Made by a program: the position numbers and the translations under genes. The notes below the pieces were generated by a model. That model was not told the DNA's origin and did not search any database. It saw only the letters and a program-made list of their open reading frames with translations. Shown one piece after another: positions 6,151 through 7,134 of a stretch of 10,964 nucleotides of DNA (the stretch's first letter is position 1; every line of letters begins with the position of its first letter). The stretch comes from a virus, in the IMG/VR virus record IMGVR_UViG_3300002461_000870, positions 1 to 10,964 of that record. One strand, given 5' to 3'.

Positions 6151-7134
6151 GTGGCATCTCAATATCGAATCAAGCGACGCATCGCCAGCCTGCCGATCGT
6201 CGCGAACTCTTTTGGCGTGATCGATCTGCCGCGTCAGTACGATTACGAGGCAATCTTTCTGCGCATCTCGGCATCGTTGCAAGTGACCGCCGGGGCAACG
6301 TCCGTGCGGGCTGAAGCGCCTTGCCAGCTGGTGCCGCGTATCGAGGTGATCGCCGACGGAAAAAACACGATCTTCTCCGCGCCATTCTGGTACGCGGCGC
6401 TCGGAAACGTGCGTCGCCATCTCACCTTGACCGGCGGCCGGGCAACGACGCCGCCAACCGGTGTGGCCATCGCAACCTACGCGGTCGAAGCCATCGGCGT
6501 GATCGATCTGCAGACCGTCGACGGTGTGCGGCCCAAGGACAGCAACTTCCGCACGCGCGGTCTTTCCCTGCTCCAGCTGCGGCTGACCTTTGGCGCCGCT
6601 GGGGATGCGTTCGTCGGCGGTACGGTCGTGTTCTCGGGTGCGCCCGTGGTCGAAGTGTTCACCGCCGAATGCGTCGAAGAGCAGAACGCGAAGGGCGACT
6701 TCATCACCAGCCCCGTCGCGTTGAAGAAAACCTCGTTCCAGCAGCAAGCCTTCGCCAGCTCAAACAGCGCGGCCGAAGTGCGGCTACCGGCCGGCAACAT
6801 GATCCGCTCGGTGCTGATCCGCACTGACGGGGCGCCGACGGCGGGCGAGCCCTCCGTGACGGTGCTCAATAACGTCCAGCTGGTGTCCGGTGTCGATGTT
6901 CGCGTGAACATGAGCGGCCCTGGCCTGCGCGCGGAAAACAACGCCAATTTTGGGCCCGTGCTGGCGGGCTACTACCTCGCGGATCTGCTGGCGAAGGGCG
7001 GCCCGACGGTCAATCTGACCGATCTGTGGGACGTGACCCGCCAGGCCGAACCGCGTGTGGTGCTCGATGTGGTCGGCGGCGCGAACGTTCAGGTGCAGGT
7101 GGTGACCGAGGAATACATCCTCGCCGCTGCGTAA
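6151..7134 (+). CDS. Candidate major capsid protein (putative double jelly-roll), 327 aa
   Basis: The GTG at 6151 lies 6 nt after AAGGGGG (6138-6144). The track start at 6058 would overlap the tiny ORF and has no SD. The protein is beta-rich with no TM and has two halves with matching strand-like patterns. It lies just downstream of the ATPase and is followed by a hairpin. The fold is inferred, not demonstrated. Confidence 0.7.
   Translation: MASQYRIKRRIASLPIVANSFGVIDLPRQYDYEAIFLRISASLQVTAGATSVRAEAPCQLVPRIEVIADGKNTIFSAPFWYAALGNVRRHLTLTGGRATTPPTGVAIATYAVEAIGVIDLQTVDGVRPKDSNFRTRGLSLLQLRLTFGAAGDAFVGGTVVFSGAPVVEVFTAECVEEQNAKGDFITSPVALKKTSFQQQAFASSNSAAEVRLPAGNMIRSVLIRTDGAPTAGEPSVTVLNNVQLVSGVDVRVNMSGPGLRAENNANFGPVLAGYYLADLLAKGGPTVNLTDLWDVTRQAEPRVVLDVVGGANVQVQVVTEEYILAAA

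Follow-up and report, generated by a model that had tools for sequence, protein, structure and literature searches.

A predicted major capsid protein of the double-jelly-roll type related to the STIV coat protein in a small circular phage genome with PM2-like gene order

The 327-residue protein encoded by the central gene of the viral sequence IMGVR_UViG_3300002461_000870 is, with very high confidence, a double-jelly-roll (DJR) major capsid protein (MCP), as judged from its predicted structure. The virus is probably a tailless bacteriophage with an internal membrane and a PM2-like (Vinavirales-type) gene order. By comparison of sequence profiles, the nearest characterised relative of the protein family is the coat protein of STIV and not PM2 P2. 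The MCP represents an uncultured family, and bacterial DJR phages of both the STIV group and the PM2 group have already been published. Throughout, the window refers to the whole stretch of 10,964 nt that was analysed, and the PM2 group, or order Vinavirales, is taken to comprise Corticoviridae, Autolykiviridae and the Jorvik-like and NO16-like phages.

When the ends of the contig were compared, bases 1–94 were found to be identical to bases 10871–10964. This is an assembly overlap, so that the sequence closes into a circular, complete genome of 10,870 bp. The overlap is direct and no inverted terminal repeats were found in the 10,964-nt contig, which has a G+C content of about 0.64. An integrase gene was absent from the window, and neither the ORF list nor Pfam revealed a polymerase-sized ORF or a DNA polymerase match. 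Two divergent genes on the minus strand encode HTH regulators (1209–1613 and 1553–2026), the second of which is of the HTH_3/DUF3693 type and resembles the HTH protein gp c of PM2. The remaining genes are on the plus strand. Several small genes separate the regulators from the gene for a Rep_1-like, rolling-circle-type replication initiator (3100–4410), which is followed by genes for a zinc-ribbon-like protein (4565–4849) and a 159-aa protein (4846–5325) that occupies the gp-h-like slot of the PM2-type order. The late genes come next, and after them more small genes run across the junction of the circle.

The MCP gene was found within a longer mechanical ORF (6058–7134, TTG start) in the program-made ORF list. 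However, 70 aligned homologues begin at the motif MAxQYRI, equivalent to the GTG at 6151, and the correct gene is therefore 6151–7134 (+), with 327 codons and a TAA stop. A preliminary description, based on the DNA letters and their ORFs, had claimed that this gene has the best Shine-Dalgarno sequence of the late operon. The AAGGGGG at 6138–6144 (+), 6 nt 5′ of the GTG, indeed forms the strongest anti-Shine-Dalgarno duplex (−11.2 kcal/mol) among the 18 genes checked, the next being −9.4 and −8.6 kcal/mol. Its placement of the gene downstream of the packaging ATPase gene was also correct, as the latter (5322–5945) ends 205 nt upstream, with a 28-aa ORF (6021–6107) between them. The protein was said to have no transmembrane segment, which agrees with a maximum 19-residue Kyte-Doolittle mean of 1.51, in a stretch predicted to be a beta-strand.

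A G+C-rich stem of 12 bp with one bulge (7154–7182, −22.4 kcal/mol) is located 3′ of the MCP stop codon and is followed by the tail TTGTCTTA, in which five of the eight bases are T, giving a feature that spans 7154–7190 (+). A simple scan overlooked this hairpin because of the bulge in the stem. Folding of the 74-nt region around the hairpin was no better than that of shuffled sequences (z = −1.45). A strong hairpin is found directly 3′ of the MCP stop codon in eight of nine related loci, where the sequences differ and the tails are mostly T-rich, and this conservation of position is better evidence than the folding energy. The position and shape indicate that the hairpin is probably an intrinsic terminator or attenuator. 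The hairpin and T-rich tract after the MCP gene had been recognised previously, but they are not unique among the late genes, as the description had it, because a terminator-like hairpin with a TTTTT run, detected in the hairpin scan at 5971–5995 (+), directly follows the ATPase gene and precedes the small ORF.

An AlphaFold2 model of the 327-aa protein, built with the 70 homologues, was predicted with high confidence (pLDDT 87.7, pTM 0.87) and consists of two consecutive eight-stranded jelly rolls. The low-confidence stretch is limited to a surface loop at about residues 90–107. From the DSSP assignment and pLDDT of the model, the first roll covers about residues 1–180 (6151–6690, +), with strands at 4–15, 21–25, 31–46, 63–68, 72–77, 108–119, 141–146 and 158–176, and a short helix (79–82) after strand F (72–77). 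The second roll covers about residues 186–327 (6706–7131, +), with strands at 190–200, 205–211, 217–226, 239–246, 249–255, 274–278, 302–307 and 314–324, and a helix (256–267) after strand F′ (249–255). A helix after each of strands F and F′ has been described as a criterion for DJR capsid proteins (PMC8812541), and the model has both of these helices as well as eight plus eight strands in one polypeptide.

When the model was compared with the PDB using Foldseek, the best 50 matches listed were all DJR MCPs aligned over their full length. They included the STIV coat protein (E 8e-19, TM 0.69/0.70), P3 of PRD1 and PR772 (TM 0.73–0.78 by query length; PRD1 P3 E 1e-18, TM 0.76–0.78), PM2 P2 (E 1.2e-13, TM 0.74 by target length) and the MCPs of PBCV-1 and Singapore grouper iridovirus (SGIV), with TM-scores over the solved MCPs ranging from 0.6 to 0.78. 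FLiP was absent from the 50 matches listed. Among the predicted viral structures in BFVD, the best matches were the MCP of Bacillus phage Wip1 (TM 0.83), Gluconobacter phage GC1 and STIV. The preliminary description had proposed a DJR MCP and had named a single jelly roll, or a fold of another kind, as evidence against it. The two rolls of the model, with full-length matches to STIV, PRD1 P3 and PM2 P2, bear out the proposal.

Sequence relationships were harder to detect. The MCP of the window alone had no match in Pfam, PHROGs, NCBIfam or the PDB sequences, and nothing meaningful came from a tblastn search of 50,697 deposited phage records. A first homologue search recovered more than 478 homologues, mostly on contigs of 9–11 kb, and an exhaustive profile search extended the family to 387 or more clusters when grouped at 50% identity. 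Two alignments were used, one of the 70 close relatives (Neff 2.1) and one of 115 diverse full-length homologues that are 20–63% identical to the window protein. The profile of the close relatives reached no link to the PDB sequences, STIV or PM2 P2 because its diversity was too low, and these links emerged only once the diverse homologues were aligned. With the diverse profile, the STIV coat protein gave a full-length match (E 2e-20), and a profile limited to the 20 closest cluster representatives was enough to reach it at E 9e-8. One family member, used in a tblastn search of the phage collection, found STIV1 (3e-4) and STIV2 and nothing else. The same diverse profile matched PM2 P2 only marginally, with an E value of 0.098 using hmmsearch and a probability of 71% (E 3.8e-5) using hhalign. 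Pfam P2_N was matched by 24 of the 70 close relatives and 17 of the 115 diverse homologues, and P2_C by 40 of the latter, with the window protein itself unmatched by either. These matches, together with cross-matches of profiles of the two halves of the protein to both rolls of PM2 P2 and both rolls of the STIV coat protein, place the family between the PM2 group and the STIV group as published, nearer to STIV. In the source databases, ‘hypothetical protein’ was the most informative name given to any family member. Only one locus emerged from a pattern-limited scan of IMG/VR, and the contigs and host genera of the family had no usable matches in the supplementary files accompanying PMC9502842 and PMC5894146.

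It had also been suggested that the protein splits into two parallel halves of about 160 aa. To compare them, the diverse alignment was split after residue 185, and the profiles of the N half (1–185) and the C half (186–327) were aligned with hhalign. The halves matched with a probability of 96% (E 2.6e-9, score 56.2 over 128 columns), whereas the score stayed at or below 16.5 in 40 controls in which the columns of the C half were shuffled and was 11.3 with a reversed copy. The halves are therefore parallel as claimed, though unequal, at about 185 and 142 residues. An HMM of the N half also matched the C half within the window protein itself (i-E 0.0039). As the controls are far below the real score and the N-half HMM finds the C half, the parallel patterns reflect real homology at the level of the family. 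The signal was not significant in the close relatives alone (E 0.13) and rose smoothly as more distant family members were added. The profile alignment of the halves reproduced all three of the motif pairs picked out in the preliminary description, namely IDLPRQYDYEAIFLRI with VRLPAGNMIRSVLIRT, PRIEVIADGKNTIF with NNVQLVSGVDVRVN and LSLLQLRLTFG with EPRVVLDVVGG. The structural likeness of the two rolls is a standard argument for a duplication (PMC9719478), and the signal found here adds a sequence-level supplement to that argument without changing it.

The neighbouring genes were examined for features of known DJR phages. The 207-aa product of the ATPase gene (5322–5945, +) is a P-loop packaging ATPase of the FtsK/HerA type and a homologue of PM2 P9. 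It matched phrog_2666 (6e-28) and HerA, and the Walker A, Walker B and RGRK motifs are conserved. PM2 P9 was among its top matches in the phage collection, with an identity of 31.6% across 94% of the protein (E 5e-18). An STIV-like ATPase was considered and rejected, as a profile of six ATPase sequences matched STIV B204 only at E 0.46. The linkage of a DJR MCP gene to an FtsK/HerA-type packaging ATPase is thus present. The 28-aa ORF between the two genes (6021–6107, +) contains a hydrophobic stretch, is conserved in three of the related loci (L002, L006 and L007) and is in the position of PM2 gene VII, which encodes P7. A P7-like gene has been reported across Vinavirales (PMC9502842). In the gp-h-like slot, the 159-aa protein (4846–5325) found nothing when compared with PM2 gp-h using BLASTP.

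Downstream of the MCP gene, three genes at 7201–8202, 8202–8675 and 8672–9154 (+) each encode a protein with one hydrophobic segment. Their position corresponds to that of PM2 P3–P10, which makes the products candidate virion proteins of the internal membrane. The next gene (9151–9939, +) encodes a 262-aa protein with two beta-sandwich domains, at residues 27–113 and 142–261, that are only loosely connected in its predicted model (pLDDT 80, pTM 0.49). Its structural matches were generic beta-sandwiches (TM < 0.3), and it has only 19 homologues. A homologue is present in all eight related loci, with a conserved N-terminal and a variable C-terminal domain, the pattern expected for a base and a receptor-binding head, and the protein is a candidate vertex (penton or spike) protein. 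It was rejected as the MCP, as the two domains are separate and there are no MCP-like matches, and also as a homologue of PM2 P1, as there is no sequence link to P1 or to the PDB sequences. A gene for a 72-aa protein (9939–10157, +) follows, then a lytic transglycosylase gene (10145–10780, +), the product of which has a hydrophobic segment at the N terminus and an SLT domain (Pfam, 1.4e-21). The Rep protein (3100–4410) matched Pfam Rep_1 at 8e-6, below the curated cut-off, and phrog_11698 at 1e-59, and its homologue in locus L011 carries Rep_1. Its nearest deposited relatives are in small phage records of 5.8–7.3 kb, such as Pseudomonas phage PMBT54 and Propionibacterium phage B5, which we take to be filamentous ssDNA phages.

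Eight related loci from species-representative genomes were compared with the window. The MCP is the best-conserved gene, with 51–77% identity across the eight loci. The ATPase has 37–68% identity in those loci where it could be detected, and several loci have other genes in place of those for replication and lysis. Two of the loci are integrated. L006 is in a 264-kb contig of a Dechloromonas MAG, where it adjoins a tyrosine recombinase gene and is near a tRNA-Ser gene, and L011 is in a 435-kb contig with bacterial genes on its flanks. The presence of such prophages in betaproteobacterial MAGs, together with the SLT lysin, indicates that the host is bacterial.

Comparison with known systems revealed a mixture of features. 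The STIV coat protein (B345, Turriviridae) resembles the window MCP as the top solved structural match, in length (345 versus 327 aa) and in full-length profile similarity. One criterion for assignment to the STIV group is relatedness of the MCP sequence, which was found here with the diverse profile and was not significant with the close relatives only. In 2018, Yutin et al. (PMC5894146) described bacterial viruses and proviruses with STIV-group MCPs and others with PM2-group MCPs, and small contigs with STIV-group MCPs have been reported in Sulfurimonas (PMC11531552). The genome maps in these papers (PMC5894146, PMC11531552) show genes for a Rep, an HTH protein and a beta-sandwich protein. 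However, STIV itself is archaeal, and the window phage differs from it in having a bacterial host, a PM2 P9-like rather than a B204-like ATPase and a PM2-like gene order.

PM2 shares with the window a circular genome of about 10 kb and the P9-type ATPase. The PM2 map runs from P9 through the 34-aa P7, the MCP P2 and the membrane proteins to the spike and the lysin, and the window matches PM2 in its order, which leads from the rolling-circle Rep and the zinc-ribbon protein through the ATPase, the 28-aa membrane peptide and the MCP to the membrane proteins, the two-domain vertex-type protein and the lysin. The core gene set of Vinavirales was defined in 2022, with an extended synteny of gp-h-like, ATPase, P7-like, MCP, membrane protein, P1-like spike and lysin genes (PMC9502842). 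The window has this arrangement in order and sizes, while homology of the gp-h-like and spike proteins to those of PM2 was undetected. The window MCP is 58 residues longer than PM2 P2 (327 versus 269 aa), as had been anticipated, and the sequence similarity between the two is marginal. Further differences from PM2 are the Rep, which is of another type than the 634-aa gene XII product of PM2, and the lysin, which in the window is an SLT transglycosylase. The MCPs of Tectiviridae gave the highest TM-scores (Wip1 0.83; PRD1 P3 0.76–0.78 by query), but their sequence identity to the window MCP is 10–15% and there is no profile match. The genome of tectiviruses is linear, ends in inverted repeats and encodes a protein-primed family B polymerase, whereas the window genome is circular and has a Rep and no polymerase.

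Other explanations for the protein were also considered. Phage vertices commonly carry two-domain beta-sandwich proteins, and the window encodes a second beta-rich late protein at 9151–9939, so that the 327-aa protein might be a vertex, spike or receptor-binding component with the true shell protein encoded elsewhere. This is extremely improbable, as all of the top structural matches are to full-length MCPs (TM 0.6–0.83) and the two rolls are packed as one unit, with a pTM of 0.87. The 9151–9939 product, with its loosely joined domains, generic matches and few homologues, does not have these properties. A six-frame search of the window with the MCP profile matched only 6151–7134, the most conserved gene, which also answers the concern raised in the preliminary description that another ORF might score as the MCP. 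The chance that the protein is instead a cellular-type DJR protein, such as DUF2961 or a PNGase F-like carbohydrate enzyme, carried on a plasmid-like element is close to nil. Cellular DJR proteins do exist and resemble MCPs (PMC8812541), and the Rep_1-like initiator is of a plasmid type. However, there was no cellular DJR protein among the top 50 PDB matches, the sequence-level link is to the STIV coat protein, and the gene is linked, in the PM2 order, to genes for a P9-type ATPase, membrane proteins and a lysin.

The rolling-circle-type Rep, with its nearest deposited relatives in phage records of 5.8–7.3 kb, could also suggest that the DJR capsid protein belongs to an ssDNA virus like FLiP (Finnlakeviridae) rather than to a PM2-like dsDNA phage. 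Against this, PM2 itself also uses an initiator of the rolling-circle type, its P12, and in the PM2 record gene XII carries an annotation of nicking at the replication origin. The gene order is as in PM2, and the 50 PDB fold matches listed do not include FLiP. In addition, the window encodes a packaging ATPase homologous to PM2 P9, and FLiP-like viruses are without one (PMC8812541). A FLiP-like virus is therefore very unlikely, and a DJR MCP in a PM2-like phage is the preferred explanation.

By analogy with the solved homologues, three copies of the MCP would form a pseudo-hexagonal capsomer with the axes of the barrels perpendicular to the shell, and the trimers would be arrayed as an icosahedral shell that encloses a lipid vesicle. 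The membrane proteins encoded downstream would be carried by the vesicle, the 262-aa two-domain protein would be located at the vertices, and the P9-like ATPase would package the DNA. The conserved hairpin 3′ of the MCP gene probably reduces read-through, and we propose that the coat protein would therefore be made in excess over the minor proteins.

These findings show what the central gene does in a phage whose complete genome is 10.9 kb, with the very high confidence given above, and flag a large and easily missed family. Neither the combination of an STIV-related coat protein with a PM2-like genome nor the measurable trace of a jelly-roll duplication is a new principle, but both are useful for understanding the evolution of Varidnaviria. 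The retained similarity between the rolls, together with an STIV-related shell alongside a PM2-type ATPase and gene order, raises the tentative possibility that this family is an unusually slowly diverged DJR capsid protein. If the similarity between the rolls is retained ancestry and not convergence on a strand pattern, the family would provide sequence material on the origin of DJR proteins by duplication of a single jelly roll. It would likewise provide sequence material, beyond structural superposition, on the relationship between the bacterial PM2 and archaeal STIV lineages.

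The first 94 bp of the window (1–94) are identical to the last 94 bp (10871–10964), and this exact terminal overlap shows that the genome is circular and complete, at 10,870 bp. The junction of the circle is crossed by one gene, which runs from 10777 onward. A cI-like HTH regulator is encoded in the window, and no integrase. Among the related loci that carry homologues of the very probable major capsid protein (MCP), L006 lies within a 264-kb contig of a Dechloromonas MAG, with a tyrosine recombinase adjoining the element (14623–15507 in L006) and a tRNA-Ser close by (4386–4473). 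L011 (5731–15266) is integrated in a 435-kb contig and has no obvious integrase within the element.

At 90% identity the family of the MCP (6151–7134) comprises more than 478 clusters, and at 50% identity at least 387; no source name other than 'hypothetical protein' was found for its members. The window protein itself had no match in the deposited phage collection, and a pattern-limited scan of IMG/VR for the family recovered one locus. Several contigs of 9–10 kb carrying family members had been binned to MAGs of unrelated phyla (Opitutaceae, Chitinophagaceae and Actinobacteria), and the host labels of these contigs are therefore unreliable.

Upstream of the MCP gene, a gap of 75 nt separates the gene for the PM2 P9-like packaging ATPase (5322–5945) from a small ORF, and contains a terminator-like hairpin, CTGCGAGCGTTGCAG, followed by TTTTT (5971–5995). 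As the equivalent gap in phage PM2 is the mapped site of the late promoter, the hairpin and T tract may mark an operon boundary. The small ORF (6021–6107), which is preceded by its own AAGGA, encodes a hydrophobic product of 28 aa, MKGALRIAVIAIVAVAIAKRLPITSQFV, and stands at the position of PM2 P7; identity was 96% in L002 and 43–46% in L006 and L007.

The ORF at 9151–9939 was mechanically called from a GTG at 9085, but the ATG at 9151, which overlaps the stop codon of the preceding gene as ATGA, is a better match to the homologues. Two beta-sandwich domains are predicted in the product, and in L008 and L009 conservation is limited to the N domain. Only 19 homologues were found, compared with more than 478 for the MCP. 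The two domains, the conservation confined to one of them in these loci and the small number of homologues fit a candidate receptor-binding vertex protein.

The type of lysin varies from relative to relative. In the window (10145–10780), as in L002, L003, L005, L008 and L009, the enzyme is an SLT transglycosylase that has a hydrophobic segment at its N terminus, while L011 has a Peptidase_M15_4 enzyme in its place (13874–14242 in L011) and L006 an unrelated ORF of 126 aa (13620–14000 in L006). Downstream of the lysin region, a 93-aa protein (89–370) with no family match is retained in six of eight related loci at 45–58% identity. The 155-aa ORF at 677–1144, which looks beta-rich and also had no family match, is conserved over its first 30 residues only and in L002 only; its product may be an accessory or vertex component specific to the strain.

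The 94-aa protein encoded at 4565–4849 has an N-terminal zinc-ribbon-like motif (CPCC...CP), an Ala/Pro-rich middle and the C-terminal tail PAKRGGFMAFLAGDDE. The motif and the tail align weakly, at the same relative positions, with the PM2 transcription factor P14 (E values of 0.05 and 0.006, respectively, in a single comparison). The adjacent rolling-circle-type replication initiator (Rep, 3100–4410) had no match to PM2 gene XII when searched against the PM2 genome using tblastn. Its nearest deposited relatives are Reps from small phage records, among them the Rep of Pseudomonas phage PMBT54, at 30.8% identity (2e-34), and that of Propionibacterium phage B5; both are probably filamentous phages. 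No homologue of the window-type Rep was detectable in L003, L004, L008 or L009, suggesting that the replication module has been replaced in some of the relatives.
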